From: an uncultured Verrucomicrobiae bacterium
Lineage (GTDB): Bacteria > Verrucomicrobiota > Verrucomicrobiia > Limisphaerales > Palsa-1400
Length of the DNA stretch: 64,000 nucleotides
Reading direction: 5' to 3'
NCBI GenBank assembly: GCA_963764165.1
Contig: CAVXRD010000002.1
Location: 1,152,001-1,216,000 of the forward strand
Made by a program: the position numbers and the translations under genes. How positions within the stretch are numbered: the stretch's first letter is position 1; every line of letters begins with the position of its first letter. Below, piece after piece: positions 5,378-31,310 of the stretch. The notes under the pieces were generated by a model that did not search any database, had not been told where the DNA came from, and saw only the letters and a program-made list of their open reading frames with translations.

Positions 5378-5550
5378 AAAATTTTTCACGGTGTCGCCAG
5401 AGATTGTCTCAGAACTTCCTGGGGGCAGCAATTAAATTTGCTGACAGTGCAGTCCCCTCCCCCTTGCGACGGAACGCTTTGGCCAAGGGCATCGTTTCCG
5501 ACGGCCCGGCCAAAGCGTCCAGCTCCTCACGAGCGATTCCGCCCAAACGC

Positions 5551-8500
5551 CTACTGTGCGAGTCGGAAAAACTGGGACGCGCCATCCGTTGGCAGCGTGA
5601 CCGAATTGGTTCCGTTGGCGCTGGTCACTGAATTTGTCACGTTGACCCAGTTTCCAAGACTTAAGTCCGCGCTGGATTGCAGGGTATAGCCGCTTGCAGT
5701 CCAGCTTAGGCTGACGCTTCCTTTTGCCTGGGCGATGTTCAGTTGCGCGCCAGGAAATACGCCAAAGAGCCGGAGTTCGCCAAGCTGCACGACAGTTCCA
5801 CTCTGGGGTGCGCCGATCGTGATGCGATAGGACGTGCAGGCGACGGTGTTCGTTTCCGCGGAAAACTGTTGGATTTCCAGGTTGCTTGTCGCCGCTTTTG
5901 GAGCCGCCGACAGCAGCGTTGCGTAATGGAATCCATCGACCGTTCCTTCGATCGTCAGGCTCGATGGCACCCGGCCCGGGTAGGAGGTGTCATCACTTCC
6001 ACCGATCATTTCGATGCCTTTCAATACGGATGATCCCAAGGCGGGCGTTAAATCGACCTGGCACGAGTTGGTGCCTGACATCAATACGAATTTATTTGTC
6101 AGTTGACCGACCTGCCGGTCAAACAAGCCGCTCAAGGTATACCCCGAGGGAAACGACGCGCCCTCTCGGAGGGTCACGCTCACGTCGTCGCTGCTGGAGG
6201 TAATTTCGCCGAATGGCAGAAATTCCACCTCCGCCACTTGCATGGCGGTCGCCGCCGCGGAGTTGGACACGGTGGGAAACGTCAGTTGATATTCGGAATA
6301 GGCCGTCGTGTTGGCAAAACGGACGGACTGGATGGAATCGCGAGCTATGAAAGGCGGAATGCCATTGCTGGCAATCGTCACAAAGTTCGAACCATCGTCC
6401 GATCCAGCCAGGACGAACGACGAGGGATCATCTTCAGGATGATCTGGGGCGCTGATAAAGGTCAGGGCTGTCACGACTTGCCGGCCGGAAGGAAACACGG
6501 TGAACCCGGTGTTGAATATGTCATCATTCGCGTAGACGGTTTGAATGACTCCATCAATGGCATTATTGACACCTTGGCCAGCGGGGCTGTTGGTGGAGGT
6601 GGCGGTAATCCAATCCCCGGGCGAAGTGACTCCAAAAACGGTGGCGTCAGCGGTGGTGGTAAAGGTGGCGTCCGCGCCGAGGATCGTGCCACCAGACCAG
6701 GTCAGAGCCACACGATAATGATAGGTGGTCGTTGGCAACAGGCCGCCGATGACGGTGGCGAGAGTGGCCAACTTTGGATTGGCGGGGATTGTTTGCACTT
6801 CGGTAGTCTGGCCATAACTTGTGTTGGTGCCATATTGGATGGTCAATTGAATCGGGTTGACAGCGGTATTGACGGACGTTTCCACCACGGCGGAGCGCGC
6901 ATTCGTTTCCGCGCCTGTTACTCCGATAATAACCGGGGTGAAGTTCGGGACGAATACCAGTTGCAATTGATGCGGCACGTTCGCCGACACGTAAAAGTGG
7001 CCCGCGTAGGTTTCACTGGCGAAGCTTGAAACGTCGATCACAAACAGGTTTGAGCTAAACCCAGTCAAGTTGCCGGTGTAAGTGGCGATAGTCCACGACG
7101 CGCTGTTCGAGGCGTTGAAGCCAGTGGTCACGCCGGGCAATGTATGCGGAGAAATGCGAATGGGAGCGGCATTGGAGGCGTTGATGGCAAGATCGCCACT
7201 GATTTGCAGCAGTCCCCAGTTAGTCCCGGCAACTCCCTGCGCCAACCCGAGGTTCCAGTTAAAATCCATGCCGCTGGACCATGTTTCCGATCCAGAGCTG
7301 AGCGTGCCCATCGGAAAGCCGGGCGAAATTCCGCCGCCATTTCCGACGGCCACTGTTCCAGTGACGGTTCCCGCGCCTGAGAGAATTCCGCCGTTGACCG
7401 CGACCGCCGCGCCGCCGTTGAGCAAACCGTTAATGGCCAGCGTCCCGCCATTGACCGTGGTGACACCTGAATACGTGTTGGTCGCAAGGAGTGCCGTGGT
7501 CCCGGAATTCTGCGTAACGCTCAGATTGCCGAACAGCGGAACAGCCGCGCCGCCGCTGGTGCCGTCCTGAGTCAAATAATAGTTCGTGCTGGCGTGGTTG
7601 AAAATGACATTGCCGGTTCCTTGCCCCGCAACGATCTCGGGCACATCCAAAATTCCCGGCGCGCCGCCGTTGCCGATTTGCAAGGTCCCAGATGCGGCAG
7701 CGCTATTTTGCCCAAGGAAAATGGGGGCTCCGTTTGCGAATACCATGGCGCCGCCTTCGACGGTCAAGAAGCCGGTATTATTGTAGCCAACGTTGATGGC
7801 GTTTAAAGAGATCCACTGCGAGCCGGCATCTTTCACGATCACGGTTCCTGAAGCCCCCGTATTGTAGGCCAAATAGGCAGCTTGATGAATAACCTTCGCA
7901 CCGCCTGCGACGACCAGCGTGGCGGCGGACGAATTGCCAACATAAAGAGCGGAAGATGGAGAAGTGATGGAGGCGCCGCTATTCGATACCACCAATGTTC
8001 CGCCGTCGAGCAGGGTCTGTCCCTCGTAGGTGTTCGCGCCGGTAAGAATCACTGTCCCGGAGCCAAGGTTTTGCAGTGATCCAGTTCCACCGATGGATTG
8101 CGGGACAGTGGAGACATCGGAGCGATTGAACTGCAAAATGCCGTTATTCACCGTGGTCGCAAAGCCGAGGTTGCCGCCGTTCGTCACTTCCAGGTAACTT
8201 CCGTTGATATAAGTCGTGTTGGAGCCAGGAAGAGTCATATCCAGCCCCCAGGTTCCGCCCCCTTGCACAATGACATCGCCGCTCATGGTGACGCCGCCGC
8301 TGACGGCGGAAGCCATGCTGGGCGCGCCAGCTCCACCGAAGATCAATTGCGACGAGGTGGAATTTCCGAGGTTGACGCCTCCAGAAATGGCGCTGCCGGG
8401 GAGAACCGTAAGCTGATTGGGATAATTTCCCATGGAAATTCCATTTTTGATCGTGCCCGCGTTGATCACCGTCGCCGCAGCACCGCGTGTGACAACGCCA

Positions 8501-10362
8501 GTGCCAGCCGGACTGGCTGGATTAAGGATCCCCGCCGCCGCCACGAACGGTCCACCCTGGATCAAGGAAGTGTTATACAATACGCCGCCGCCATTCATTT
8601 GGATGCCCGCGCCTCCGACAGCGCTCCCGCCGCTGGCGCCAGACAGAGTTCCGCTATTGGTGACAAAGCAGTTGGTGGAAAAAGAAAGTCCTGCCCCCCC
8701 TTCACCGCCATAACCGAAGCCGGACCCGGAATAATTGAGGGACCCAGTGCCGCCAGAGATGGTGCCGCTATTGATGACGGTCGCAACGGATGAAAACGCG
8801 GCTCCCGGGCCACCGCTGCTGGCTGATCCGCCGCCGCCTCCTTTGATGGAGCCTTCGTTGACCAGAATCCCATTCGTGTGGAATAACAGGCCTGTTCCTC
8901 CACCAGCGCCTACGTCAGAAATGCCTGAGGAACCGCCGCTGGCTGAGATAACGCCCGTGGCAAGGTTTGTCGCCAGGGCGAAGCCGGAAAAGCTGACACC
9001 GGAGCTGCCTGCCGCGCCTCCCGCAGAGCCGCCCGCAGAGATTTGTCCAGCGTTCACGAGTGTTCCGTTGGTCCTGTAGGAAACGCCAGTTCCTCCCGCT
9101 CCTTGCGCCCCCAAACCGGTCGAATTTCCTCCACCCCCCTGAATGATGCCCGATGCGTTGTTGTTTAATGTGCCGGAGCCGTTGAACGTCACAGCGTCGC
9201 CGGCGGATGCATTGCACCCGTTTCCTCCGGTAACCTGTCCCGAATTATCGAGCGTCCCGTTGGTGCTGTAGGAGACTCCCGTTCCTCCTGCGCCCGCCGC
9301 AGTCCCGCTGGCGTTCCCCGCTCCTGCAGCAATGATGCCGGAAGCCGTGTTGGTCAGGGTGCCGGCGCCGTGGAACGATACAGCGCTCCCTCCGTTGCCA
9401 TTGTTCCCCGCGCCGCCCTTAATGGAACCATCGTTCACAAAGTCGGCGTCGGACTGCGCATTAACTCCCCCTCCGCCGCCAGCGCCCGAAAGAAACGCGT
9501 CTCCACTGGCAGCGCCGCCCCCGGTGATCGTGCCAGCGTTATAGAATGCGCCCGCGTTCAAGTCCAACCCGTCGGCCCCGGGTCCAGGATTAGAAACAAT
9601 ATCATTGGTTCCAACTCCGCCCGTAATGTCGCTGCCTGCGGAATTGATAACCTCTCCGCCGTTATTGATCACGCCTGCCATTCCCGGATTGCCGTTGAGG
9701 GCACTGGCACTCCCCAGCCCGCCCAATTGCAATAGTCCGCCGTCGAGCGTGACCGATCCAAGATTATTTAGCCCTCCAAGCTGCAAGTCGCCCCCGACCA
9801 CCGTCAAAGGGCCGCCGGAGATAGGATTCGTGCAAACTACGGAGTAGCCGGTGCCTTCGAAGGTTAATCCATTAGCCGTGATCGTGACTGCGGAACCGCT
9901 AACGTCCCTGAAAAAATTTTGGCTGCTCTCGGTCGGGAAAAGGGTCGCGCCGTCAAAAGTCGCGGTGCCCAAGCCGCCTAAATCGAGGTAGCTGGCGAAC
10001 AGCGTTCCGCCGTTGCTCACAACTATAAAATTCGTTATTCCCGCCCCGGTCGAGTAGATCGCGCCGGTATAGAGCGACCCACCGTTGATGACGATTCCGC
10101 TGCCGGATCCCAAGCCGACAGAATTTGCCAGGCCTGAAACGTTTGTCGGCACGAATACCTGGTTGCCGTTTAGAATCAGGGCGGTATCCGACAGTGTCGG
10201 GACAAACGGATTCCAATTTGCCGCCGTGTTCCAATTGCCGTTTGGACTGACAAAGGAGTCGATGCCTGCCTTGGCAGACGCCACACCTGTGGCGACGATG
10301 GCAAAGGAAAGTAAAAAACGGGCGCGCTCAAGTTTTAAGGTCATGCCGGTTACGTGTTTCAT
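5551..10362 (-). CDS. Giant Gly-rich beta-helix surface protein with autotransporter-associated beta-strand repeats, FN3-like and discoidin-like domains (paralog A)
   Basis: Signal peptide FLLSFAIVATGVASAKA; repeats GSGTVILTGANTYEGQTLLDGGTL; C-terminus ...SQFFRLAQ. Start set at MKHV (10362) by alignment with paralog B. Confidence 0.85.
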   Translation of the reverse strand: MKHVTGMTLKLERARFLLSFAIVATGVASAKAGIDSFVSPNGNWNTAANWNPFVPTLSDTALILNGNQVFVPTNVSGLANSVGLGSGSGIVINGGSLYTGAIYSTGAGITNFIVVSNGGTLFASYLDLGGLGTATFDGATLFPTESSQNFFRDVSGSAVTITANGLTFEGTGYSVVCTNPISGGPLTVVGGDLQLGGLNNLGSVTLDGGLLQLGGLGSASALNGNPGMAGVINNGGEVINSAGSDITGGVGTNDIVSNPGPGADGLDLNAGAFYNAGTITGGGAASGDAFLSGAGGGGGVNAQSDADFVNDGSIKGGAGNNGNGGSAVSFHGAGTLTNTASGIIAAGAGNASGTAAGAGGTGVSYSTNGTLDNSGQVTGGNGCNASAGDAVTFNGSGTLNNNASGIIQGGGGNSTGLGAQGAGGTGVSYRTNGTLVNAGQISAGGSAGGAAGSSGVSFSGFALATNLATGVISASGGSSGISDVGAGGGTGLLFHTNGILVNEGSIKGGGGGSASSGGPGAAFSSVATVINSGTISGGTGSLNYSGSGFGYGGEGGAGLSFSTNCFVTNSGTLSGASGGSAVGGAGIQMNGGGVLYNTSLIQGGPFVAAAGILNPASPAGTGVVTRGAAATVINAGTIKNGISMGNYPNQLTVLPGSAISGGVNLGNSTSSQLIFGGAGAPSMASAVSGGVTMSGDVIVQGGGTWGLDMTLPGSNTTYINGSYLEVTNGGNLGFATTVNNGILQFNRSDVSTVPQSIGGTGSLQNLGSGTVILTGANTYEGQTLLDGGTLVVSNSGASITSPSSALYVGNSSAATLVVAGGAKVIHQAAYLAYNTGASGTVIVKDAGSQWISLNAINVGYNNTGFLTVEGGAMVFANGAPIFLGQNSAAASGTLQIGNGGAPGILDVPEIVAGQGTGNVIFNHASTNYYLTQDGTSGGAAVPLFGNLSVTQNSGTTALLATNTYSGVTTVNGGTLAINGLLNGGAAVAVNGGILSGAGTVTGTVAVGNGGGISPGFPMGTLSSGSETWSSGMDFNWNLGLAQGVAGTNWGLLQISGDLAINASNAAPIRISPHTLPGVTTGFNASNSASWTIATYTGNLTGFSSNLFVIDVSSFASETYAGHFYVSANVPHQLQLVFVPNFTPVIIGVTGAETNARSAVVETSVNTAVNPIQLTIQYGTNTSYGQTTEVQTIPANPKLATLATVIGGLLPTTTYHYRVALTWSGGTILGADATFTTTADATVFGVTSPGDWITATSTNSPAGQGVNNAIDGVIQTVYANDDIFNTGFTVFPSGRQVVTALTFISAPDHPEDDPSSFVLAGSDDGSNFVTIASNGIPPFIARDSIQSVRFANTTAYSEYQLTFPTVSNSAAATAMQVAEVEFLPFGEITSSSDDVSVTLREGASFPSGYTLSGLFDRQVGQLTNKFVLMSGTNSCQVDLTPALGSSVLKGIEMIGGSDDTSYPGRVPSSLTIEGTVDGFHYATLLSAAPKAATSNLEIQQFSAETNTVACTSYRITIGAPQSGTVVQLGELRLFGVFPGAQLNIAQAKGSVSLSWTASGYTLQSSADLSLGNWVNVTNSVTSANGTNSVTLPTDGASQFFRLAQ

Positions 10363-10431
10363 AAGCTGTAATTTTATTTGGATGCTGGTCACAGTCGGAT
10401 CACAACGATTAGTTCTCCGATTCACCTCATA

Positions 10432-10458
10432 CAGAGCTCTTTGAAAACCGAAGTTTCA
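10432..10458 (-). promoter_or_regulatory. Putative ECF sigma promoter P1
   Basis: Minus strand TGAAAC-ttcggttttcaaagag-CTCTG (16-nt spacer); same architecture at 15104 and 19368. Confidence 0.65.
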
Positions 10459-10649
10459 GAAAATCGAAAATAAATGAGCCCTGGCTGGCCGGAGGAAAAG
10501 CCGGTTCCCAAGACCCATTGCCGAAAGGGCCACGTGAATTTTCGAGTGGGGGATTGGTTTACCAAAGGTGTAGCGCAGCTTCGGAGGCCGCGCCGCGAAA
10601 TCCGGAACCCCGGCAGCCCAGTCCCGCCGGAGTTCGCTGACCAAGCCGC

Positions 10650-13600
10650 CTATTGCGCCAATCGGAAAAACTTGGCCGCGCTATCCATCGAAAGCGTGAC
10701 GGAATTGCTTCCGTTGGCGCTGCTGACGGAATTTGTGACCGCGATCCAGTTCGCGGACTCGAGATCGGCATTGGATTGCAGTGTAAAACCGGTGCCCGTC
10801 CAGCTTAAGTTCACACTTTGATTCATCAGCGCTATGTTCAACTGCGGTCCCACGGTCAGCCCGAAGAATCGCAGCTCGCCGACTTGCAAAACGCTCGAAT
10901 TCTGCGGCTTGCCCAGCGTGATTCGATAAGACGAATAGACGCTGGAATTTGTTTCGACGGAGAATTGCTGGATTTGAAAATCGTTCGTCGGCGCAACAGG
11001 ATTCACCGACAGCACTCTGAGATAATTGGAACCGTCGACAGTTCCGTCAACCGTTAGCGTGGAAGGGGCGCGGCCCGGATATTTAACATCATCATCGCCA
11101 GCAATCATTTCGACCCCTTTCAGCACCGACGTTCCTGCCGCTGGAGTCAGGTACACTTCACACGCGCCATTGTCCGACACCAAGTTAAACTTATTCGTGT
11201 CTTGAGCCAGTTGCCGGTCGAACAATGCGCTCACGCTGTATCCCGAAGGCACGCTCGCTCCGCCCGGCAGCGTCAGGCTGACGGCATCATTGCTGGACGT
11301 GATCTCGCCAAAGGGCATGAATTCCACCTCGGCAATCTGCATGGCGGCCGCGGTCGCGGGATTGGCCACCGTCGGAAATGTCAGCCGATATTCATTGTAT
11401 GCGGTTGAATTAGGAAATGTAACTGATTGGATGGAGTTGGGCGCCGGAAATGGCGGAATGGCATTGCTCGCAATCGTGACAAAGTTCGTTCCATCGAAAG
11501 AACCAGCCAGCACGAAAGACGTTGGATCATCTTCCGGGTGGCTGGCCGCGCTGATAAATGTTAGCGCGGTCACAACGCTGTCGCCGGCGGGGAATACTGA
11601 AAATCCAGTGTTAAAAACATCATCATTTGCATAGACCGTTCCAATGTTTCCATCAATCGCGTTGTTCGCTCCTTCACCCGCCGGGCTGTTGGTGGAGGTC
11701 GCCTGCAAGAAATCGCCGGCCCTGGTGATTCCAAAAACTGTCGCGTCCGCCGTGGTGGAGAAGGTTTCATCGGCTCCTTCAATCGTTCCACCGGACCAGG
11801 TTAGAACCGTCCGATAATGATAGGTTGTCTTTGGCTGGAGATCCAGGATAACGGTTTCCGGGCTTGCCAGCTTCGGCAAGCTATTGATTGACTGGACAGA
11901 CGTCGACTGACCATAGCTTGCGTTAGTTCCGTATTGGATGGTCAATTGAATGGGACTGGCGGCGGTGTTGATCGCTGTTTTGACGACCGCGTAGCGCGCG
12001 TTTGTTTCCACCACGGCTTCTCCCGTAATGGACGGAGTGAAGTTCGGGACAAACACTAATTGCAATTGATGCGGGACGTCCGCCGAAACATGGAACTGGC
12101 CGGCATAGGTCTCATTCAGAAAATTCGTCGCATCGATGACAAACAGATTTGAATTGAATCCAGTTAAATTCCCGGTGTAGGTGGCAATTGTCCATGCGCC
12201 GCTGTTGGAGCCATTGAATCCACTGGCCAATCCCGGCAGGCTTCCGTTAAAGGTGCGCAGAGAAACGCGCATCGACCCGGCGTTTGAAGCATTGATTGCC
12301 AGGTCTCCAGTGATTTGCAGCAGGCCCCAGTTGGTTCCGGCAAGCCCGGTGGAGGACGCAAGATTCCAATAGAAAGCAGTGCCAGGCCCCCATGTTTCCG
12401 AAGGGGTGTTTAGCGTGCCCACCGGCGACCCCGGCGAAACTCCGCCCCCATTTCCGATGGCCACCGTTCCTGTGACCGTGCCGGCGCCGGCAAGGGTGCC
12501 TCCATTGGCTGTAATCGCCGGGCTTCCATTCAGCAAGCCGTCAATCGCCAGTGTTCCCCCGTTGATCGTGGTTGGACCCGAATAGGAATTTGTCCCGAGA
12601 AGCGTCGTCATTCCAGAATTGTTGGTGACACTCAGGTTGCCGCTCAATGGGACAGCCAAGCCGCCAGCGGTGCCATCCTGGGTCAAATAATAATTGGAGT
12701 TGGTATGATCGAAAATCACGACGCCTGTCCCGGCGCCCACGGTCACCGCAGATATATTCAAAAGGCCGGCAGAATCTCCATTCCCGATCTGCAATGTTCC
12801 CACTGCAGGATGAAGCCCGAAAGAATTCTTCTCTCCCAGCACAATTTGCCCGCTGCCACCGTTCACGGTCACCTTGGCGCCGCCTTCAACAGTTAAACTG
12901 CCAGCGTTGAAATAGCCCACCGTAAGGCTGTTGATGTTATTCCATTCCGAGCCCGCACCTTTCACCGTCACCGTGCTGCCCGAAGCAAAAAGCGTTTCAG
13001 CCAGGGTGGCATTGTTGTCGGTGAAAGCAGCTCCACCTGAAACCACCAAAGAGGCCGCGCTGTTATTGCCGACGATGAGATCCGCGCCAGGAGAGTATAT
13101 GGCGGCCCCGTTGCTCGATACTTGCAATGTCCCGCCCTCAAGGATGGTGCCGCCCGCAAACGTATTTGAGCCTGTTAACGTAACAGTTCCAGAGCCGGTG
13201 TTCTGGAACGATCCCGAACCGCTGATGGACGCTGCGAATGTGGAAGAATCGGATCGATTGAATTCCAAAACGCCGTCGTTTACCAAGGAAATTGAACCAA
13301 GGCTGCCGCCGTTGACGACTTGAAGAGAGCTTCCATTCAAGTAAGTCGTGCCAGTGGTGGGAATCGCCATGTCCAAATTCCAAGTGCCGCCCCCCTCCAC
13401 CACAACCTGGCCATTAAAGGTCAAACCGCCGCTGATGGTGGAAGACATATTTGTTACCCCGTCTCCATCAAAAATCAATTGCGAGTCTGTTGAATTTCCC
13501 AAGTTGGCGCCGCCAGAAATGTGGCTGCCGGGAAAAACGGAAAGCTGGTTGCCAAAGTTGCTGCCCATGGTGATGCCGTTATTGATGGTGCCTTCATTGA

Positions 13601-15032
13601 TGACTGTCCCTGGTCCGCCCTGGATAACAACGCCAGTGCCCGAAGAACTGCCGGAGGAACCAAAACTGCCCCCAACTCCAGAGCCGCCTTGAACCAACGC
13701 GGCGTTGAACAACACTCCGCCGTCATTCATTTGAATGCCCGTGCCGCCACCGCCAGCACTCGCGAAGCCTGAAGAACCTCCACCGCCAGAGATCATGCCC
13801 CCGGAAAGATTTGTCACAGTCGCGAAAGCTGAAAAGGACACGCCTGTGGCGCCGCCACCGCCAGAGCTGCCATTGCCGCCGCTAATTTGACCCGAGTTGA
13901 TCAAGATCCCCGCCTCTTTGTAGGATAGGCCGGTGCCCCCTCCGCCGCCGTTGAAAAAGGTACCGCCGCTGCCCGGGCCGCCAGTAATTGACCCCGTGGC
14001 GCCATTGGTTAGTGTCCCCGTCCCCGCAAAGGCGACTGCCGTTCCGCCACCTCCTCCATCCGAGCCGCCGCCGCCTTGGATCGAGCCAAGATTCGTGAAC
14101 GAGGTTCCTGAGGCGGCCGAAACTCCAGTCCCGCCACTGGCGCCGCCGGTAAGAGCCCCAGACCCGGCCCCAGCCCCGTTGATCGTGCCGCTGTTCAACA
14201 GGCCGCCGCCGAGCTTCAGGTCTAAACCGTCGCCGCCTGTGCCATCGCCGCTGGAAAATCCGCCCCCCGCTCCGGAACCGCCGGTAATGACACTGCTGGC
14301 GGCATTGACCAGCATGCCGCCGCTGTTGATCACCGCGCCCGGATTCCCCGAACTTCCCGCGCCCGCGACAGAGCTGGGGACATTGAGTCCTCCCAATTGG
14401 AGAGTGCCGCCGTTAACGGTGACCAACCCAAAATTATTGCTGCCTGCAAGCTCGACCGCGCCACCGGCCACTGTAAGCGGCCCGCCGTTAAACGCGTTCG
14501 TAAACACGACGCTGTATATGCTGCTATTGAAAGTCACGCCGCCGCTGTTGATGGTCACGCCGGAAGGGCCCAGGTTGCGAAAGAATCCAGTGATATTGGC
14601 CGTTGGCTGGATGGTTGCCCCATTGAGCGTCACCGTGCCGAGGCCGCCTAGATCGACTTCGCCAGCCGCCAGCGTTCCGCCACCCGAGACAACGACAAAA
14701 TTGGAAGTTCCGGGCGCCGCTGGAGCAATGTTTGGGGCAACGACCTTTCCACCATTGATCGTGAGTGTGCTGCCGATCCCAAGGCCAAGAGCCTGGGCAA
14801 CACCTGTTACTCCAGAGGGAACCGATACTTTGTTGCTATTCGAGATAATGGCAACATCCGTGGCGCTGGGAACGGCTGCATTCCAATTTGAAGCAACATT
14901 CCAATTTCCGTTTGAATTGATGAAATATTGCGTGTCCGCTCTCAGTGACGTCAAACCTGTGGCGACGATGGCAAAGGAGAGTAAAAAACGGGCGCGCTCA
15001 AGTTTTAACGTCAGGCCGGGTGCGTGTTTCAT
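10650..15032 (-). CDS. Giant Gly-rich beta-helix surface protein (paralog B)
   Basis: Colinear with paralog A from MKHAPGLTLKLERARFLLSFAIVATG to AKFFRLAQ. Confidence 0.85.
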   Translation of the reverse strand: MKHAPGLTLKLERARFLLSFAIVATGLTSLRADTQYFINSNGNWNVASNWNAAVPSATDVAIISNSNKVSVPSGVTGVAQALGLGIGSTLTINGGKVVAPNIAPAAPGTSNFVVVSGGGTLAAGEVDLGGLGTVTLNGATIQPTANITGFFRNLGPSGVTINSGGVTFNSSIYSVVFTNAFNGGPLTVAGGAVELAGSNNFGLVTVNGGTLQLGGLNVPSSVAGAGSSGNPGAVINSGGMLVNAASSVITGGSGAGGGFSSGDGTGGDGLDLKLGGGLLNSGTINGAGAGSGALTGGASGGTGVSAASGTSFTNLGSIQGGGGSDGGGGGTAVAFAGTGTLTNGATGSITGGPGSGGTFFNGGGGGTGLSYKEAGILINSGQISGGNGSSGGGGATGVSFSAFATVTNLSGGMISGGGGSSGFASAGGGGTGIQMNDGGVLFNAALVQGGSGVGGSFGSSGSSSGTGVVIQGGPGTVINEGTINNGITMGSNFGNQLSVFPGSHISGGANLGNSTDSQLIFDGDGVTNMSSTISGGLTFNGQVVVEGGGTWNLDMAIPTTGTTYLNGSSLQVVNGGSLGSISLVNDGVLEFNRSDSSTFAASISGSGSFQNTGSGTVTLTGSNTFAGGTILEGGTLQVSSNGAAIYSPGADLIVGNNSAASLVVSGGAAFTDNNATLAETLFASGSTVTVKGAGSEWNNINSLTVGYFNAGSLTVEGGAKVTVNGGSGQIVLGEKNSFGLHPAVGTLQIGNGDSAGLLNISAVTVGAGTGVVIFDHTNSNYYLTQDGTAGGLAVPLSGNLSVTNNSGMTTLLGTNSYSGPTTINGGTLAIDGLLNGSPAITANGGTLAGAGTVTGTVAIGNGGGVSPGSPVGTLNTPSETWGPGTAFYWNLASSTGLAGTNWGLLQITGDLAINASNAGSMRVSLRTFNGSLPGLASGFNGSNSGAWTIATYTGNLTGFNSNLFVIDATNFLNETYAGQFHVSADVPHQLQLVFVPNFTPSITGEAVVETNARYAVVKTAINTAASPIQLTIQYGTNASYGQSTSVQSINSLPKLASPETVILDLQPKTTYHYRTVLTWSGGTIEGADETFSTTADATVFGITRAGDFLQATSTNSPAGEGANNAIDGNIGTVYANDDVFNTGFSVFPAGDSVVTALTFISAASHPEDDPTSFVLAGSFDGTNFVTIASNAIPPFPAPNSIQSVTFPNSTAYNEYRLTFPTVANPATAAAMQIAEVEFMPFGEITSSNDAVSLTLPGGASVPSGYSVSALFDRQLAQDTNKFNLVSDNGACEVYLTPAAGTSVLKGVEMIAGDDDVKYPGRAPSTLTVDGTVDGSNYLRVLSVNPVAPTNDFQIQQFSVETNSSVYSSYRITLGKPQNSSVLQVGELRFFGLTVGPQLNIALMNQSVNLSWTGTGFTLQSNADLESANWIAVTNSVSSANGSNSVTLSMDSAAKFFRLAQ

Positions 15033-15103
15033 AGGCTGTAATTTTATTGTGAATGCTGCTTTCGGTCGGATCACCAAGATCAAGTTCTCCGATCCACCTC
15101 ATA

Positions 15104-15130
15104 CATAGCTGTTTGAAAACCGAAGTTTCA
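15104..15130 (-). promoter_or_regulatory. Putative ECF sigma promoter P2
   Basis: Minus strand TGAAAC-ttcggttttcaaacag-CTATG (16-nt spacer). Confidence 0.65.
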
Positions 15131-15472
15131 GAAAATCGAAAATAAACGAAAGCCCTGACTGGCCGGAGGTCACTCCGGTTCCGAAGGTTCCTCGACGATG
15201 TCGGTGGAATAGCGGTGTCAAATTTGATTCGTTTCGGCGAAGAAACTCTGCGTTCTCCGCGCCTCTGCGCGCGATTGAGTTTAATGCCACGATGAAACCA
15301 AATGGGACCACCACACCGTTCGTCGATGCCGCTTGCCGCGTCCACCGCGCATCGTCAATGGCCTGCAGGAGGGGAAAGAATCTTCGCGCAGAGAAGATGA
15401 GTGCGCAGAGAAACACAAAGACAAATCCGCACTCCGCCGAAAACAGTGAGGAACCGCTCCGAAGCCTTTCAT

Positions 15473-15560
15473 AACAGAAGGTAACGAAGTGAACGAAAGG
15501 GTGCATACCGACTGCCCAACGCAGCTCACCCCCCCTTCGTGTCCTTCGTTTCCTTCTGTT
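15473..15560. repeat. Inverted repeat with 9-bp periodic arms (AACAGAAGG family)
   Basis: aacagaagg-taacgaagt-gaacgaaag ... cttcgtgtccttcgtttccttctgtt; related copy at 21414-21492. Confidence 0.65.
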
Positions 15561-15594
15561 GGCAATTCTGCCCCCAACCTTGCAGTATTGAAGG

Positions 15595-18500
15595 CTAGCG
15601 TGAGGATGCAAAGTTGCGTCGGGCCGCGCTCAGGCGAGTCAAAATTGACGGGTCGCCAGGCGTCCCCATTGCCAGCCGATCGAGATGAAAAACGGCGGAA
15701 AACCAATCGCCGCGGAGTTCTGCCATCACAGCTTGCTGATTATGCCACGGTCGAAGATCTTGCGGCCATTCCGGGCCGGCCTGGCCGCCATTCAGGGAGG
15801 CGAAAGTGCCAGCCAGCTCTTGAGCTGTCATAGGCATGCCCACCCGCATTCCTGTCATCGCTTCCACCATTAATTCAAGTTGCCGGTTGCTTGGTGGCTC
15901 GGACGGCAGGTCAATCACCCAGACAGCGGCGGATGCGCCGCCTGTGCTCACGTAAAGGCGGCGGCCGTTCCTCGAAAAAACCAGCGAGGAAACGCTGCCG
16001 TTGAAATGCATGGGCGGCATGAGGGCGTCACCGCGCACGGTTTCCCAAATATTCACCGCGCCATCGGCTGCGCCGGAGGCCAGCACCCGGCCATCCGCCC
16101 GGAACGCAAGAGCGCTCACAACGCGGCGATGCCGAAGTTCGCCGGTTGCCGGGCTTCCGTCTGCCGCGCGCCAGAGGTGAACGACATTATCCTCACCTCC
16201 TGTGGCAATGAGAGCGCCGTCTGGAGAAAATCTCATCGAGGAAACACCGTCGCCGTGCCGGAGGGGCGCGGCCGTCGGCTGCAATCCAGGCAGCGCATAA
16301 ATCCGCGCGGCGGACGGTTCGATGTCGCTGTTGCCGAAAGCAATCGCAATTCGGTCAGCCGCGGGATCGAACTGCGCCTCGCTAAATGTGTCGAGAGGGC
16401 CGCCGACAATGGGTTTCCCGCAAGACAGACCCGATTTGGCGTCCCAGACTTCCGCGGAACGGCCGCCTGCTGTACAGATCCACCGGCCGTTCGGACTCCA
16501 GCAAATCGTCTTTGCCGGCTCGCGCAAGTCGATGCTTGAGCCAAGCGGCTGGCCGTCCGATGTCCGCCAGAGTTGCAGCAGCCCCCGGCTCGTCGCGGTG
16601 GCAAATTCGCTTCCATCGGGCCGGAAGGCGACCCGGCTGATATCTTCCAGCGCCGGATTGTCGCCTGCCTGCAATTTCAAAAGCATTTTTCCAGTGGAGA
16701 AATCGTTGATTTGCAGGCCGCGTTTTCCCAGCGCCAGCGCAATGTGGCCGGGCCCCGCATCGAGCGAAATTTGCTGAACCCCACCCGGAACTGTAACCGG
16801 CTGGCCTTGCAGCTCGCCGGTTTCCAAATTGAAAATATGGCAGGTGCCATGGCGGTCGGCCAGGATCATCCAGCGGCCATCGGGCGTGTTTGCCATTCGC
16901 GTCATCGCCTCACCGTTCACCAGCAACGGCTGTGCGCCGAAGGACAAGTCCCATACTTGCACGCAGCCTGCGGCGTCGCCCGCCGCCAGAAACCGGCTGT
17001 CGTCGCTAAACGCGATTTCCTGGATCAGAGTTGTCCGGTGAACCGTTGGCATGGCGGGTTTTTGGCTGTCCGTGTGTACAAGCCGCAACTGATAATCGAA
17101 GCCAGCGGTCGCCAGCCACGCGCCATCCGGGCTGAACACGATTTTGTTGACACCACCTTCGTGAATCACCGTCTGGCCATGCGGTTCGCTGGTGGAGGTG
17201 TCCCAGATGCGCGCTGGCTCTTGAAATCCGCCCGTTGCGAATTGCCGCCCGTCAGGTTTCATTTCAATGACCTGCCAGTTCTCCGGCGACGGGACGGAGG
17301 CCATGGTTTCCCCCGTGCGCCAACGCAGGACCTTTATGCGGTTAGTCGAATAGCAAAGCAGCCGTTCACCTTCCTGGTCCAACTTCGGCGGAACCCATGG
17401 AAAGACAGGCGACTCTTCCTGCTTCACGAGGGCGCCAGTGGCCACGCTCCAGGCATAAGCGCGATCCCCCTCATGCACTGTCAGCAATGTTTTTCCATCC
17501 CGGGAAAAACACATCCAAAACGCCGGGCTGTTGTTGGTTGTTGCAACGGAAAGCCGCTCACCGGTCTCTGTGCTCCAAAATTGGATCGGCACGCCCCCGG
17601 TCGCCACAATTTTGCCGTCCGGGCTGAATGCAGCCATAACGGGTTGGTTGGACTCCATCGCGAGGGAAACGACCGCGTTATCGGTTAAACGACGTATGGA
17701 CGCGTAGGGTAGTCGGTTGAAAAACTCGAGGACTTGGGAGCCATTGGGATCGAGAATCGTGTCGTGCGCGCCTGGGCGCGGAGTGGCCAGTTTTCGAGAA
17801 TTTTGCGTGGTCAGGTTCCACACACATGTTTCTCCATCTTGCAAAATCGCAATCAGGCGGCGGCCATCCTTGGAAAATTGAAGTTTGCCCGGAATTCCGC
17901 CAGCGTCCCAGACGCGCATGAGCCTGGGCGAGTTCTGGAGAGTGCCTGCGACTCTTTCGGCGACGGAATGCTGCACGTCCGGCTCGTCGCGGCAAAGCCG
18001 CGCGGCGTCGATCAGTGGAGCAAGCCCCGCGAAACCTTCATTGGCCGAATTTAGCCGCCCACTCTCGCGCAAATCCTGTGTCAGCAGCGCGTGGCGGCTG
18101 GCAGCTTCGTTCGCATTCGCGATGGCTCGGGCGCGGTTCAGGCGCACGTTGAAAGCAAGCGAGCCGATGGTGATAACAACGAGAGCAAGAAGAGAAATCA
18201 GAATGAGTCCGCTCTGGGCAGGATGGCGGCGCACCCATTTGTGCATGCGCTGCGTGGCCGTGCTGGGCCGCGCTTGAATCGGCTCGCCGCGCAAAGCATT
18301 TTCAACGTCCTCAATTAATTCCGCCGCGCTGCGGTAACGGCGCTCCGGTTCTTTCTCAAGGCACTTGAGGCAGATGGCCTCCAGATCCGCGTGCAAGGCG
18401 GACGCCGGCAACGCAGTTTCCATGCGGCGCAGCGGGGTCGGCTCTTCCTCGGCAATCTTTCGCAGCAGCGCATGCGGATTTGGCCCTTCAAACGGCGGCC

Positions 18501-19287
18501 GCCCCGCCAGCATTTCGTAGAGCACGGCTCCCAGCCCGTAAACGTCTGCCGTCACTGTAAGATCGCGCGCGCCTCCGGCGATTTGTTCCGGCGGCATGTA
18601 AGCCGGAGTGCCTAGGATGCTGTTGCTGGCAGTCATTTCGACGCTGCCTTCCAGAATCTTGGCCAGCCCGAAGTCGGTCAAGTGTGGCTCCCCCAGCGGA
18701 TCGAGCAGGACATTATTCGGCTTGAGGTCGCGATGCAGCACGCCGCGCTCATGCGCGTGTTGAACGGCGCGGGCAAGTTTGACAATCAATCGCGCCGCCT
18801 CCTCGGGTGGCAATCCGCGCCCGTGGGATTTTTTCTCAAGAGTTCCGCCCTCGATGAACCGCATGGAAAAGAAATGCCAGCCATCGTGGTGACCGACCTC
18901 GTAAATGGGCACAATATTCGGGTGGTCGAGCCGCGCGGCGGCTCCCGCCTCAGTGCGAAACCGCTCCACCATGCGAGGCGAGGCGAGCTCGCCTGCGGCG
19001 ATCACTTTCAGGGCCACGACGCGATCGGGTTTCTTTTGGCGGGCGCGGAAAACCACTCCCATTCCGCCACGGGCAATCTCCTCAATGATTTCATATCCGG
19101 CGAATTTGCGGGCGGCCAGCAGGCCGGCGGGTGATTGCAAGTTCGCGAATTCATCATCCTCGGGCGGCGGGGCAAGCGCGCCGATCAGCAGGCAGCGCGC
19201 GCACAAGCCATCGGGCGCGCCGCCCATCAAGGGCGCGGCGCAACGATCGCATCGCGCGTCGCTTTCAGGCAGACCTGTTATGTTCAT
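15595..19287 (-). CDS. Membrane Ser/Thr protein kinase with N-terminal Cys pairs and C-terminal WD40 repeats
   Basis: IARGGMGVV, VALK, HRDLKPNN, DFG, GTPAYMPPE; TM segment LILISLLALVVITIGSLAF; many FSPDG..LAT..D...W repeats. Confidence 0.92.
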   Translation of the reverse strand: MNITGLPESDARCDRCAAPLMGGAPDGLCARCLLIGALAPPPEDDEFANLQSPAGLLAARKFAGYEIIEEIARGGMGVVFRARQKKPDRVVALKVIAAGELASPRMVERFRTEAGAAARLDHPNIVPIYEVGHHDGWHFFSMRFIEGGTLEKKSHGRGLPPEEAARLIVKLARAVQHAHERGVLHRDLKPNNVLLDPLGEPHLTDFGLAKILEGSVEMTASNSILGTPAYMPPEQIAGGARDLTVTADVYGLGAVLYEMLAGRPPFEGPNPHALLRKIAEEEPTPLRRMETALPASALHADLEAICLKCLEKEPERRYRSAAELIEDVENALRGEPIQARPSTATQRMHKWVRRHPAQSGLILISLLALVVITIGSLAFNVRLNRARAIANANEAASRHALLTQDLRESGRLNSANEGFAGLAPLIDAARLCRDEPDVQHSVAERVAGTLQNSPRLMRVWDAGGIPGKLQFSKDGRRLIAILQDGETCVWNLTTQNSRKLATPRPGAHDTILDPNGSQVLEFFNRLPYASIRRLTDNAVVSLAMESNQPVMAAFSPDGKIVATGGVPIQFWSTETGERLSVATTNNSPAFWMCFSRDGKTLLTVHEGDRAYAWSVATGALVKQEESPVFPWVPPKLDQEGERLLCYSTNRIKVLRWRTGETMASVPSPENWQVIEMKPDGRQFATGGFQEPARIWDTSTSEPHGQTVIHEGGVNKIVFSPDGAWLATAGFDYQLRLVHTDSQKPAMPTVHRTTLIQEIAFSDDSRFLAAGDAAGCVQVWDLSFGAQPLLVNGEAMTRMANTPDGRWMILADRHGTCHIFNLETGELQGQPVTVPGGVQQISLDAGPGHIALALGKRGLQINDFSTGKMLLKLQAGDNPALEDISRVAFRPDGSEFATATSRGLLQLWRTSDGQPLGSSIDLREPAKTICWSPNGRWICTAGGRSAEVWDAKSGLSCGKPIVGGPLDTFSEAQFDPAADRIAIAFGNSDIEPSAARIYALPGLQPTAAPLRHGDGVSSMRFSPDGALIATGGEDNVVHLWRAADGSPATGELRHRRVVSALAFRADGRVLASGAADGAVNIWETVRGDALMPPMHFNGSVSSLVFSRNGRRLYVSTGGASAAVWVIDLPSEPPSNRQLELMVEAMTGMRVGMPMTAQELAGTFASLNGGQAGPEWPQDLRPWHNQQAVMAELRGDWFSAVFHLDRLAMGTPGDPSILTRLSAARRNFASSR

Positions 19288-19367
19288 TCTTTGACGGACC
19301 GAGTTGGCTGAAGTGATGGCGGTTGCTCATCGGTGCGTCTTTGGCCACTGCGGCTACTGCATCATAC

Positions 19368-19394
19368 CAGAGCCCTTTTCAGGCGAAGGTTTCA
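19368..19394 (-). promoter_or_regulatory. Putative ECF sigma promoter P3, between sigma and kinase genes
   Basis: Minus strand TGAAAC-cttcgcctgaaaaggg-CTCTG (16-nt spacer). Confidence 0.6.
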
Positions 19395-19446
19395 AGAAAT
19401 CTGAAAAATACTTCACCGTTCGCCAATTCAAGCGCCTCTTCGACCG

Positions 19447-20205
19447 CTAGGCCGCGAGCACCGCGATGAGGTGCTGAATTTCCTCCTCGACATCCTCTTC
19501 CGATCCAACGGTCGAAGCCACTTCCTCGCGGATGATCTCACCGTAACGCCGTCTCATTCGGAAGATGGCAGTCTTGGTGGCCGGTTCTGAAAGGCCGGAT
19601 CGTTGCGCGGCCTCCGCATAAGATTGTCCCCCGCCGTCGCCTTGCAGAAAGGCCTTGAGAACATCAAATCGGGATTTCAAGCCGTCGTTTTCCATTTCGT
19701 CGCCCAACCGGTGCAGCGCCGTTTTTACCACCGTTTGGGCCCAGCGCAGATCAAACCACTTTTCCGCCGCGGCTGGATTTCCCGGTTCCATTAAGAACTG
19801 TTGCTCGGGGTCGAGGCCATCCAAGGATATAATGGTTGTTCCGCCGCCGCGTTTCAGCCGCTGGGAGTCGCGCCACGCGCTGGCGAGAAAATTCTTGAGC
19901 GCAGCGAGCAAGAAACTTCGAAAGCGCCCCTTATCCGGGGAGACAGCCTGCAAGGAATCGCTCGAAAGAAGCCGCGCAAAGAATTCCTGGGTCAAATCCT
20001 TGGCCTCCTCATCGCCGTATCCCTGACCGCGGACAAATCCGTAAAGAGGATACCAATAGGCGCGGCACAACGTCTCCAGCGCGGGAGCGGTTTCCGAAGA
20101 TGCGCGGCCCGCCTTTAGAATGACGCTCCAATGCGTCGTGCGAAAGTTGCGTGGCGACGAGTCCGATGTTCTGGATGGCGAGGCAGGTTCATCCATTTTG
20201 CTCAA
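19447..20205 (-). CDS. ECF RNA polymerase sigma factor (kinase-associated PVC type)
   Basis: FRTTHWSVI, ALETLCRAYWYPLYGF, EAKDLTQEFF, GRFRSFL, region-4 SYAEAAQRSGLSEPATKTAIFRMRRRY. Start may be ATG 20196. Confidence 0.88.
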   Translation of the reverse strand: MSKMDEPASPSRTSDSSPRNFRTTHWSVILKAGRASSETAPALETLCRAYWYPLYGFVRGQGYGDEEAKDLTQEFFARLLSSDSLQAVSPDKGRFRSFLLAALKNFLASAWRDSQRLKRGGGTTIISLDGLDPEQQFLMEPGNPAAAEKWFDLRWAQTVVKTALHRLGDEMENDGLKSRFDVLKAFLQGDGGGQSYAEAAQRSGLSEPATKTAIFRMRRRYGEIIREEVASTVGSEEDVEEEIQHLIAVLAA

Positions 20206-20337
20206 CTACAACGGTAGCAGAACCATAGGAGTGTTTCCAGTAAAAAGATGTGCGGACGGACCTTGGCGGTTGCGGGTCACTTCAGCAACGCTAGAAGCGA
20301 AATATTTGTACATCAGCCAATGCAAGGACAAGGGGCG

Positions 20338-20404
20338 GCCACAGATTCACACAGATCAACACAGATTTTTAATTTATCTGTGTTGATCTGTGTCCATCTG
20401 TGGC
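20338..20404. repeat. Palindromic element with 10-bp periodic ACAGAT units, copy 1
   Basis: gcc-acagattcac-acagatcaac-acagat..atctgtgttg-atctgtgtcc-atctgtggc. Confidence 0.85.
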
Positions 20405-20480
20405 TCTCTTGTCTGGCGGGATTTGCCTTCTGCGGCTGTGACGAAAAAGGGACCAAGTTGTCCCTGTGATTTTCTCATAT

Positions 20481-20888
20481 TTAATCCAAGAGTGAAAACA
20501 AGGAAACAATCCTGATTTCCTTCACTCGGAACATAGGTTTTCCCGGCTTTTCTGAAGTATAAAACTCTTCCACGCCTTGGCGAATGGCGGCGGCAATCTG
20601 CAGTGCATCCGGGCCCGCCAAACCGTGGCGGGCGGCAAGATTTTCAGCCTCTAATCCGAGATCCGGAGTCAAGGCTTGGCTGCCGGCACAATCGGCAAAG
20701 TGCGATTCATAAAACGCCACCTCTCTTGGCCGTTTTTCAAAACGCGGCTTGGGCAGAAGTTCCAACCGGACCAGTTGGGACGTGAAAAACTCGCGCGTGT
20801 CATCATCCATTATCCTCATGGCAGCGCCTGACAGCGTCTCTCCGCGCCAGGCGTGCAATAAGACGCCGCTGTCCAAAAATGTTCTCAA
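20481..20888 (-). CDS. PIN-domain (VapC-like) toxin
   Basis: FLDSGVL, VRLELL, GPDALQIAAA; overlaps the upstream antitoxin by TTGA. Confidence 0.8.
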   Translation of the reverse strand: MRTFLDSGVLLHAWRGETLSGAAMRIMDDDTREFFTSQLVRLELLPKPRFEKRPREVAFYESHFADCAGSQALTPDLGLEAENLAARHGLAGPDALQIAAAIRQGVEEFYTSEKPGKPMFRVKEIRIVSLFSLLD

Positions 20889-21151
20889 AAACTCCGCCCC
20901 CGGCGCTCCTTCAGCTCCTGCTCAGCTTGCGCATCAGAAAGCAACGGACTGCGTTCGGCTCGCCCCTTTTTACGCAATGCCTCCATTCGGCGTCCGCGTT
21001 CCGTTTTGGGTTTCCATTGCACCGGTTTGCGCTTGGCGATCTTTTCCTCAATTGCCTGCACAATGAAGCCGCTGCGTCCCTGACCCGCAGGCGGTATCTG
21101 TTCTAAAATCCGCGCCGGAATCTTTACGCTCACAAGAGTGGCATGCGTCAT
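20885..21151 (-). CDS. Antitoxin, RHH/CopG-like
   Basis: VSVKIPARILEQI..RSGFIVQAIEEKI, coupled to the PIN gene. Confidence 0.7.
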   Translation of the reverse strand: MTHATLVSVKIPARILEQIPPAGQGRSGFIVQAIEEKIAKRKPVQWKPKTERGRRMEALRKKGRAERSPLLSDAQAEQELKERRGRSF

Positions 21152-21188: not shown

Positions 21189-21277
21189 TGTGGGCACGAC
21201 CTCCGTAAATATGCGAATATGTGGCACTGACAGAACGATGGGAGACGTTAAATGCAGCGGCGCAAGGACGAGGGCTC

Positions 21278-21344
21278 GCCACAGATTCACACAGATCAAC
21301 ACAGATTTTTGATTTATCTGTGTTGATCTGTGTCTGTCTGTGGC
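21278..21344. repeat. Palindromic ACAGAT element, copy 2
   Basis: Near-identical to copy 1, same orientation, 940 bp downstream. Confidence 0.85.
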
Positions 21345-21413
21345 TCTTTTGTCAGGCGCGCCTTGCCTTGCGGTTCGGATGCTCGATCCCCAGCGCCGGG
21401 TTAGGAAAAGCCC

Positions 21414-21492: not shown

Positions 21493-21634
21493 TAAGCCTC
21501 AACTTCAGTCTCTTTTCCTTAGTTCGGTCGTTCCAGATTCAATTTTCATCAGAATTTGTCCTCACGCCCGCTCATGGCTATTCGCCAGATTCGGATTGCT
21601 ACAGACGGTCTTCCCATGCTCAATGGGGCGGGTT

Positions 21635-22387
21635 ATGTCTTCTGAACCCGGAGCCAGTTCCATTTTTCCGCGCACCAACTGGGATGAGTTGGCGCCCGCG
21701 ACCACTGCCGACACCGAACGGCTGGATCGACTCATCCGGCTCTATTGGTCGCCGCTCAAGATTTTCCTCCTCGCCTCCTTTCCATCTTTGAAGGATCAGG
21801 CGGAAGTGCTGCTGCAGGAATTTGCCGAGGACAAAATGCTCAAGGCCGGCTGGCTTCAGCGGGCGGATCGCGAGCGCGGCAAGTTTCGCGATTTCCTAAA
21901 AACCAGCCTCCGCAACTTCGTCCTCGACCGCCTCAGCCGCGCCGAAGTCAAACACGCGCCTCTCTCGCTGGATGAACTCGAAGTCGATTTGCCCGGGCCA
22001 GAGGCGACGGCGGAAGCGTTCGACTTGACTTGGGTGCGGACGGTCCTCGGCGAAACGCTGCGGCGGATGGAGGAGGATTGCAAAGATCCCGAAAATGGCC
22101 AGCCACGGCGCGGGCAAATTTGGGAAATGTTTCGCATCCGCCTGCTGGATCCGCTTTTGCATGACGCCCCGCAAGTGCCATATGACCAACTCATACAAAC
22201 CTTCGGCTTGAAATCCCCGACCGACGCCTCGAACATGCTGTTGAGCGCCAAGCGCATGTTCAAATCGCACCTCACCAAAGTCATCAAGGAATATGCGGAA
22301 GCGGACGCCGCGACCGCTGAGGAAATCCGCGCCTTGGAGGAGTTTGTCGCCCGATTGGCGCAAGAAAGCCCCAAACGCGGCGTATAG
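21635..22387 (+). CDS. Divergent ECF sigma factor
   Basis: FPRTNWDEL, LDRLIRLYWSPL, LLQEF, GKFRDFLKTSLRNF, FDLTWVRTVL; homologous in layout to the 19447 sigma. Confidence 0.75.
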   Translation: MSSEPGASSIFPRTNWDELAPATTADTERLDRLIRLYWSPLKIFLLASFPSLKDQAEVLLQEFAEDKMLKAGWLQRADRERGKFRDFLKTSLRNFVLDRLSRAEVKHAPLSLDELEVDLPGPEATAEAFDLTWVRTVLGETLRRMEEDCKDPENGQPRRGQIWEMFRIRLLDPLLHDAPQVPYDQLIQTFGLKSPTDASNMLLSAKRMFKSHLTKVIKEYAEADAATAEEIRALEEFVARLAQESPKRGV

Positions 22388-22398
22388 GAAACGAGTGT

Positions 22399-22932
22399 AT
22401 GTCGGAATTTGATCCCGCTGGGACTCTCTCCAAGAGTCCCCCGAAAAGTCTCGCCGCATTCCTGGCGGAAGGGGAGGAACGCGCCCGCCTCTGGCGGCCG
22501 GACGAATTGGCAGCGATTTTCCGCCACCAAATGTCCGCCCCCGTGCTGGTGGATCTCGGCGGCGCCGATCCGGTGACAGCGGCGCGCCTGAAAGCCTTGA
22601 GCAACGCGCAAGGTTTATTATTGACAAGTTTTCGCGATCTTTTTCTGCATCCTGTTCCTCCGATTGAATTGCTGGCCCTCACCAAGGATTTCGCCAAGGG
22701 CAACATGGATCAGCCGGACAGCGTCCTTCCAAATGACGTGGCGGCGGCCGTTTATTATTTGACCATCGCGGCGGGATTGGTTCGCCTGAACCAGCGCATC
22801 TCGCGACTCGGCGATTCCGAACTCAAACGCGGCCTGGAGTGGGCCAAGAGCAAGCCGTGGGTGGAATCGGCGCTTCAGGATTTGCTGGGCGAGGCCGTGC
22901 GCAAATTGGAGACTCCCGGCGGGAAATCATGA
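22399..22932 (+). CDS. Hypothetical helical protein between ECF sigma and kinase
   Basis: 11 nt after the sigma stop; ATGA overlap with the kinase start; no motif recognised. Confidence 0.75.
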   Translation: MSEFDPAGTLSKSPPKSLAAFLAEGEERARLWRPDELAAIFRHQMSAPVLVDLGGADPVTAARLKALSNAQGLLLTSFRDLFLHPVPPIELLALTKDFAKGNMDQPDSVLPNDVAAAVYYLTIAAGLVRLNQRISRLGDSELKRGLEWAKSKPWVESALQDLLGEAVRKLETPGGKS

Positions 22933-31187: not shown

Positions 31188-31310
31188 AGCGAAGCGACAC
31201 CACCGGACACAACGATGATTATGACTCATCCCGGCAGGGATGACAGCCGCATGGCGGTGCGCTAGTTCATGCTGGCATCCTTCCAGGATGCAGGTTTTTC
31301 TGACATTTTT

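Follow-up and report, generated by a model that had tools for sequence, protein, structure and literature searches.

A sigma factor of the extracytoplasmic function (ECF) class encoded in a 64,000-nucleotide (nt) stretch of an uncultured Verrucomicrobiae bacterium (assembly GCA_963764165.1, contig CAVXRD010000002.1, positions 1,152,001 to 1,216,000, hereafter the window) very probably reads three promoter-like sites, P1, P2 and P3, that lie downstream of its own gene, as judged by comparative sequence analysis. The genes concerned run along the minus strand in the order sigma factor (249 amino acids, aa), Ser/Thr kinase (1230 aa), G2 (1460 aa) and G1 (1603 aa), and the regulon is likely a local one, taking in the membrane kinase together with the paralogous pair of secreted surface proteins. 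In the full reading put forward here, to which we give a probability of roughly 0.6, the sigma factor reads P1 to P3 for this local regulon and the kinase activates the sigma factor by phosphorylation at a site other than the one used in EcfP of Vibrio parahaemolyticus. As the motif varies in step with the predicted DNA-reading residues in more than 100 relatives, the sigma factor likely switches on all three genes. What is new is a predicted target promoter and residue code for kinase-linked ECF systems of this kind, by which the mechanism is made testable.

The pattern TGAAAC-N16-CT(C/A)TG has three matches in the window (10432-10458, 15104-15130 and 19368-19394), all on the minus strand, against 0.01 expected from 100 shuffles, and these are the sole matches in the 7.0 Mb genome once the pattern is extended by TATGA. 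The two-box pattern alone gave five genome matches at a spacer of 16 and 0-5 (mean 2.4) at 13 other spacers from 10 to 23; it is unenriched genome-wide, so the signal lies in the local clustering. P1 and P2 count as one observation, since both fall within a duplicated 5′ block of promoter, leader and signal peptide in which 219 of 259 bases (85%) are identical, and G1 and G2 themselves are paralogs, with 56% of residues identical across 1420 aa and 67% of bases identical in the gene bodies. The spacer of P3 matches that of P1 at 8 of 16 positions and that of P2 at 7 of 16. These results bear out the original prediction, made from the sequence alone, as to the three sites and their positions, the suggested origin of P1 and P2 by gene duplication, the largely different spacer of P3, and the identities of the genes, found here to encode an ECF sigma factor, a WD40 kinase and two PATR-repeat proteins. 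The scan of the genome and relatives that it had proposed upheld a local cluster and a family-wide element, and returned no genome-wide enrichment of the two boxes. A dispersed regulon was rejected: among 13 genome matches within one mismatch of the 13-position pattern, four precede a gene, and two of these are P1 and P2. Another genome match, at C4:67332, falls at the 3′ end of a gene on the opposite strand, and no gene follows it on its own strand.

An unsupervised motif search of 86 sigma-kinase gaps from other genomes yielded the element YGTAAC-N16-YTWWGTA (log-likelihood 1052, compared with 145 and 154 for shuffles), of which P1, P2 and P3 are one variant. Bacillus promoters of the SigW/SigX type likewise combine a TG(T/A)AAC-like -35 box with a 16-nt spacer. 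Relatives of the sigma factor were found in 50 of the 61 genomes searched, its own included, and the 120 regions used, around 150 of 238 matches, gave 128 distinct sigma factors together with the paralogs of this genome. A kinase lies at most 1.5 kb downstream in 91 of the 128. Box scores of at least 7 were seen at 76 of the 86 kinase-linked training loci, a circular figure, versus 3 of 32 unlinked loci; among held-out loci (the best 80 of 568 metagenome relatives plus two loci from a single-protein contig scan), 46 of 57 linked ones attained this score versus 109 of 1140 shuffles. The named homologs of the window sigma factor are mostly from Verrucomicrobiota, and members of the family were likewise present in 96 of 201 genomes from a Planctomycetota sample, where, among the 30 best loci, 16 had a linked kinase and 7 reached the box score. 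The genome ranks in Table 1 come from a family matrix trained without this genome. A pyrimidine/purine step stands 7 bases past the conserved A in 55 of 79 sites, versus 2-28 at shifted positions; this step at the predicted -1/+1 gives the predicted start sites of P1 and P2. As a separate candidate for a family trait, a sigma70 extended -10 upstream of the sigma genes was too weak to retain (9/63 versus 2-3/63 in controls). One subgroup, comprising L018, L022 and related loci, has ATTRWT together with an intact DAED motif, and has neither a downstream kinase nor a downstream site. A literature search that did not extend to subscription papers such as Jogler 2012 and Iyer 2020 found no published promoter for this sigma family.

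The element is tied to the sigma factors by residue-base co-variation across the 79 loci whose site was confident, after 12 of 91 had been dropped, two paralogs of this genome among them. Of 231 sigma columns, those that co-vary best are 209 and 208 with the -35 box and 106, 102 and 85 with the -10 box, and they hold in 63 sequences below 70% identity. Rules fixed on the training set were then applied to held-out bases, where residue 209 was correct in 37 of 44 cases (permuted mean 17.4, maximum 28), residue 106 in 37 of 43 (mean 15.8, maximum 27) and residue 85 in 34 of 41 (mean 20.4, maximum 32). The window sigma factor fits the code at K208, which goes with C (45/45), and at V85, which goes with T (18/21). 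On a quick tree, in which 33 of 76 inner branches are weakly supported, variants arise repeatedly, as with M209 and GTTAC in L102 inside a well-supported V209/GTAAC clade. By our reading, the code positions would equal Arg171, Ser172 and Asn84 of RpoE, and the family rules agree with the mutational findings reported at those positions, in which Arg gives C, Tyr gives G and Asp gives -13C (Todor et al., bioRxiv 2020.06.23.168245). The variation of residue 102 among N, H and R resembles that described for SigH N88 (bioRxiv 534826). More generally, the family shares with the ECF code of these two sources the TG(T/A)AAC-like -35 box, the fixed 16-nt spacer and the same contact positions, including the equivalents of Arg171, Ser172 and Asn84 and the specificity loop.

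The wiring of the regulon is general across the family. Recurrence of a box variant was scored as the site of a locus found again before a neighbour gene with at most 1 mismatch in 10, and this was seen in 28 of 79 loci versus 5.3 under permutation (maximum 15), a count that takes in 3 loci of this genome and 4 matches that lie ahead of the sigma gene itself. After the removal of this genome, of sigma genes and of close relatives, the figure was 17 of 60 versus 3.4 (maximum 11), and in held-out loci 10 of 46 versus 3.05 (maximum 11); relatedness still inflates these tests somewhat. The targets resemble G1 and G2, in that an N-terminal hydrophobic stretch occurs in 24 of 28 versus 206 of 595 other neighbours and an FFR-like end in 6 of 28 versus 40 of 595. 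In the closest relative with DNA context, L153 (sigma 57% identical, with V85, N102, S106 and TSAIFR), the sigma gene is followed by genes for a 1249-aa WD40 kinase and a 1177-aa secreted protein, and YGAAAG-N16-CTCTGGT precedes both downstream genes, so the extra G of P3, also present there, is not decay. In L154 (sigma 54% identical), CGAAAC-N16-TTCTG lies upstream of the kinase and the next gene, and four paralog loci of this genome carry their own variants before the kinase and a neighbour gene. Taken together, the family motif, the co-variation and the recurrence of own variants lend strong comparative support to the claim of the original prediction that the sigma factor would transcribe the kinase and both surface-protein genes. 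As a side observation, variants of the paralogs also stand before other, distant genes of the genome, at C2:289879(-) (TGTAAC..GTCAGTA), C4:512863(-) (..GTCTGTA) and C2:2422554(+) (TGTAAT..TTCTTAA), of which C4:512863 is close to a truncated family sigma gene at C4:509016-509552.

Autoregulation of the window sigma gene was rejected, as the best match upstream of it has 3 mismatches in 10. Among relatives, the own site precedes the sigma gene in 4 of 58 loci. It has this position too in L055, L119, L136 and L150, so some members are predicted to autoregulate. With no site before the sigma gene, the loop would boost sensor and outputs and not the sigma factor itself. The rarity of sites at this position is also the likely reason that surveys restricted to upstream regions report no conserved motif. 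In the description of Todor et al. (bioRxiv 2020.06.23.168245), the search covered regions upstream of the sigma gene, its operon and divergent genes, so a site 3′ of the sigma gene lay outside the search space.

The proteins themselves are consistent with a sensor kinase paired with an ECF sigma factor. The sigma factor has sigma2 and sigma4 domains and no sigma3, the composition of group 4, at modest domain scores (PF04542, 25.2 bits with a cut-off of 24; PF08281, E 0.002, below cut-off; TIGR02937, 34.2 bits, below the 42.9 cut-off). Its best sequence match in the PDB is SigE (E 9e-6), and its best sequence and fold matches are all ECFs, the fold E-values being above 0.001; the AlphaFold model has a predicted local distance difference test score (pLDDT) of 80.9. 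The kinase keeps the complete set of catalytic motifs and has a single hydrophobic segment, at residues about 356-381, that holds all of its top hydropathy windows. Its four-cysteine motif recurs in 89 of 91 linked kinases, the four cysteines being invariant in 56 aligned kinases picked for having the motif. The WD40 repeats are predicted to be periplasmic, and similar repeats in Planctomycetota kinases are described as mostly periplasmic by prediction (PMC11032199). As the original prediction had noted, no anti-sigma-like gene was seen adjoining the sigma gene, where a PIN-domain gene and a small partner lie upstream instead.

In its kinase the locus agrees with what is described for ECF62, a group without an anti-sigma factor in which the +1 gene encodes a kinase with a single membrane helix and, in subgroups s1 and s2, with WD40 repeats and a zinc finger at the N-terminus (PMC7826278); the window kinase likewise stands at +1 and has one membrane segment, WD40 repeats and a CxxC-x12-CxxC motif. 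Set side by side by description, ECF62 is listed as 100% Planctomycetes, the named homologs here being mostly verrucomicrobial and the family present in the Planctomycetota sample as well, and its target promoter is given as "not conserved", whereas the present family has one, downstream of the sigma gene. No conserved target promoter is listed for ECF61, ECF62 or ECF217 in the same classification, which presents regulation of ECF62 by its kinase as a hypothesis (Casas-Pastor et al. 2021, PMC7826278, Supplementary Text S2). The planctomycete groups ECF59 and ECF217 share with the window system a membrane kinase at +1 and a long sigma2-sigma4 linker, and differ in that their kinases are described with six membrane helices or TPR repeats and their motif as "TC in -35" or not conserved (PMC7826278). 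With ECF43 (EcfP/PknT of Vibrio parahaemolyticus and EcfK/PknS of Xanthomonas citri) the window locus has in common a sigma gene adjoining that of a membrane Hanks kinase, the lack of an anti-sigma gene, an extracytoplasmic repeat domain on the kinase, and envelope or secretion outputs. However, ECF43 has Thr at the third DAED position and the window sigma factor has EAKD; the latter is ECF43-like in layout yet, by sequence, no ECF43 member. The genome also encodes 12 sigma factors of the QPTALVHE type (C1:1515606-1516184 and 11 more loci), several of them beside kinases, which form a second, EcfP-like set and which we take to be ECF43. The window sigma factor shows no meaningful similarity to these 12, its BLAST match to one (E 0.049) being out of register.

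We infer kinase control from gene context and precedent, namely the lack of an anti-sigma gene, the intact kinase and the ECF62-like architecture. In the mechanism that we consider rather probable, a periplasmic signal sensed by the WD40 propellers would turn on the kinase, and the kinase would modify a weakly active sigma factor at a site other than that of EcfP, whereupon the sigma factor would bind P1, P2 and P3 directly and transcribe the kinase, G1 and G2. Little cross-talk is predicted among the paralogous modules of the genome, which carry different box variants. The mechanism of kinase control would differ from the known Vibrio one. The original prediction had drawn an analogy to EcfP and pointed to the Thr of EAKDLTQE, neither of which holds at the residue level: EAKD is kept, and that Thr (T69), rejected as an EcfP-like site, aligns with the Thr in DAEDLTQE of M. 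tuberculosis SigE and is ordinary in ECFs. At position 66, the third DAED residue and the counterpart of the EcfP site, Glu occurs in 25 of 148 linked versus 23 of 39 unlinked members, and D67 is invariant (148/148 linked members). The loss of the acidic residue from most linked members would fit a sigma factor weakened at the same surface, with the charge supplied elsewhere. The best Ser/Thr contrast is at S94, present in 143 of 148 linked versus 19 of 39 unlinked members. Ser/Thr residues are common in this helix among ECFs. At the position of the family's linker T/S-P-E motif, residue 143, the window sigma factor has Ala. In EcfP, which has no DAED motif, the phosphorylated residue is the Thr of STTA, and a 2022 review states that groups keeping DAED may differ, with their mechanism left open (PMC8999054); for EcfK, further phosphorylation sites in the linker are described (PMC13147305).

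Several findings weigh against the reading as a whole. On the DNA side, P3 has a family-matrix score of 7.3, which is weak, and ranks just 4981st of 14.0 million positions genome-wide, the L153 site scores 3.6 and is under the threshold, and L153 and L154 were singled out after the scan. The held-out rules for residues 208 (46/46, permuted 42.2) and 102 (31/46, permuted maximum 33) are uninformative or weak, N102 predicts T (11/14) yet P1, P2 and P3 have C or A, and S106 of the window sigma factor gives an ambiguous prediction. A rule by which T209 would specify AA was rejected, having held in one of two training cases and none of four held-out ones. On the kinase side, none of 187 family members has Ser or Thr at position 66, where Q, E, K, A or R stands instead. 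The unlinked members largely form one subgroup, so the Glu contrast reflects few independent events. T21 (148/148), T69 and T229 are equally conserved in kinase-unlinked members, and T21 and T229 lie at helix ends in the AlphaFold model, where a structural role would account for their conservation.

The alternative that survives best is itself unlikely: the sigma factor reads P1, P2 and P3 and the kinase restrains it, by membrane docking through the four-cysteine domain or by an inhibitory phosphate, so that P3 would provide negative feedback as in sigma/anti-sigma operons. A restraining kinase would yield identical wiring, so P3 does not settle the sign of the feedback. Restraint would suit the retained DAED-like motif and invariant D67, by which the sigma factor may bind core polymerase unaided, as well as the near-constant four-cysteine domain and a sigma factor that drives its kinase and seldom itself. 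It sits poorly with the retention of every catalytic motif, with the acidic third DAED residue being mostly lost in linked members, and with the two characterised sigma-kinase pairs, EcfP/PknT (PMC8999054) and EcfK/PknS (PMC13147305), both described as activating. Still less probable is a kinase that is a mere output acting on other proteins, with the sigma factor controlled otherwise. That view draws on the failure to find a kinase-specific Ser/Thr beyond the S94 contrast, and on the many substrates often reported for bacterial Hanks kinases (PMC13147305); it is countered by the proximity of a kinase to most family sigma genes, by a site that follows the sigma gene only when a kinase does, and by the fact that no other regulator was seen beside the window sigma gene. 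Finally, it is very doubtful that another sigma factor (a paralog, the divergent one at 21626 or another ECF) reads P1 and P2 as copies of a single duplicated promoter and that P3 acts mainly as the sigma70-type extended -10 (TG-G-TATGAT) that it overlaps: the 85% identical block, the low score of P3 and the 9 family members and 12 ECF43-like sigma factors of the genome would allow it, but, of the six tabulated paralogs, the window sigma factor is the only one with T209/F212, in four paralog loci the kinase and a neighbour gene are each preceded by a variant particular to the locus, GAAA-type boxes recur in L153 and in L154 ahead of the kinase and the next gene, and a sigma70 consensus promoter was not found before G1 or G2.

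Phosphorylation control of kinase-linked ECF groups in the Planctomycetes-Verrucomicrobia-Chlamydiae (PVC) superphylum has been proposed since 2012, and the promoter consensus and residue code together amount to a reporter for a direct test of kinase dependence. The code also predicts secreted proteins under each module in poorly studied soil and water bacteria, and the family offers a natural set of orthogonal sigma-promoter pairs. A wider and distinctly tentative picture, less likely than the local one, is that of a PVC-superphylum family of modules with one sigma factor, one kinase and one surface protein, up to 29 per genome, which would be kept apart by a promoter code of a few residues, with the sigma factor wired to its sensor and not to itself, and with a second, non-EcfP phospho-mechanism acting on the TTHWS motif or the extra C-terminal helix.

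Table 1 Features of the sigma-kinase locus, numbered from the first letter of the window
Feature	Position	Strand	Description
P1	10430..10458	(-)	TGAAAC-N16-CTCTGTA; start predicted at G10423; genome rank 31 of 14.0 million positions
P2	15102..15130	(-)	TGAAAC-N16-CTATGTA; start predicted at G15095; genome rank 21 of 14.0 million positions
P3	19365..19394	(-)	TGAAAC-N16-CTCTGGT(A) within the sigma-kinase gap of 159 nt; start predicted at about 19358
ECF sigma factor, 249 aa	19447..20196	(-)	start ATG 20196; N-terminal FxTTHWS motif, EAKD for DAED, extra C-terminal helix at residues 233-248
Sigma4 recognition-helix codons K208, T209	19570..19575	(-)	predicted to read positions 6 and 3-4 of the -35 box; top mutual-information columns
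Hanks-type Ser/Thr kinase, 1230 aa	15595..19287	(-)	CxxC-x12-CxxC at N-terminus, kinase domain 65-322, WD40 repeats (PF00400 E 8.5e-41)
G2, secreted Gly/Asn-rich protein, 1460 aa	10650..15032	(-)	ATG 15032; N-terminus resembling a signal peptide; PATR repeats; C-terminal region F5/8-type-C-like, ending in FFRL
G1, secreted protein, 1603 aa	5551..10362	(-)	ATG 10362; PATR repeats; F5/8 E 4e-5, below cut-off

For G1 and G2, the label of adhesin or glycan binder is a guess, because its basis is the PATR repeats and sub-threshold F5/8 type C matches; in G2 the F5/8 type C match has E 2.6e-4, below cut-off, and Atlas look-alikes give F5/8 at 0.87, as a lead only. Directly after G1, at 2-5431 (-), a large secreted protein with LTD, PA14, DUF1349 and weak CotH matches runs off the window; no motif copy was seen upstream of its gene, which may be read through from P1.

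Between two sigma genes, at 20481-21151 (-), lie the PIN-domain gene and its 88-aa upstream partner, likely a toxin-antitoxin pair. The pair is flanked by a 108-nt direct repeat (20322-20429 and 21262-21369), 89% identical and with a 29-bp palindrome in each copy, which may be a REP-like (repetitive extragenic palindromic) element or an insertion mark. The second of the two sigma genes opens a divergent module at 21626-25034 (+), absent from the original prediction, which encodes a distant member of this sigma family (about 30% identity), a protein of 177 aa that belongs to no known family, and an NHL-repeat Ser/Thr kinase, with just 12 nt after the sigma gene. Further along, at 29901-31229 (-), is a gene for a DDE transposase with DUF4372.

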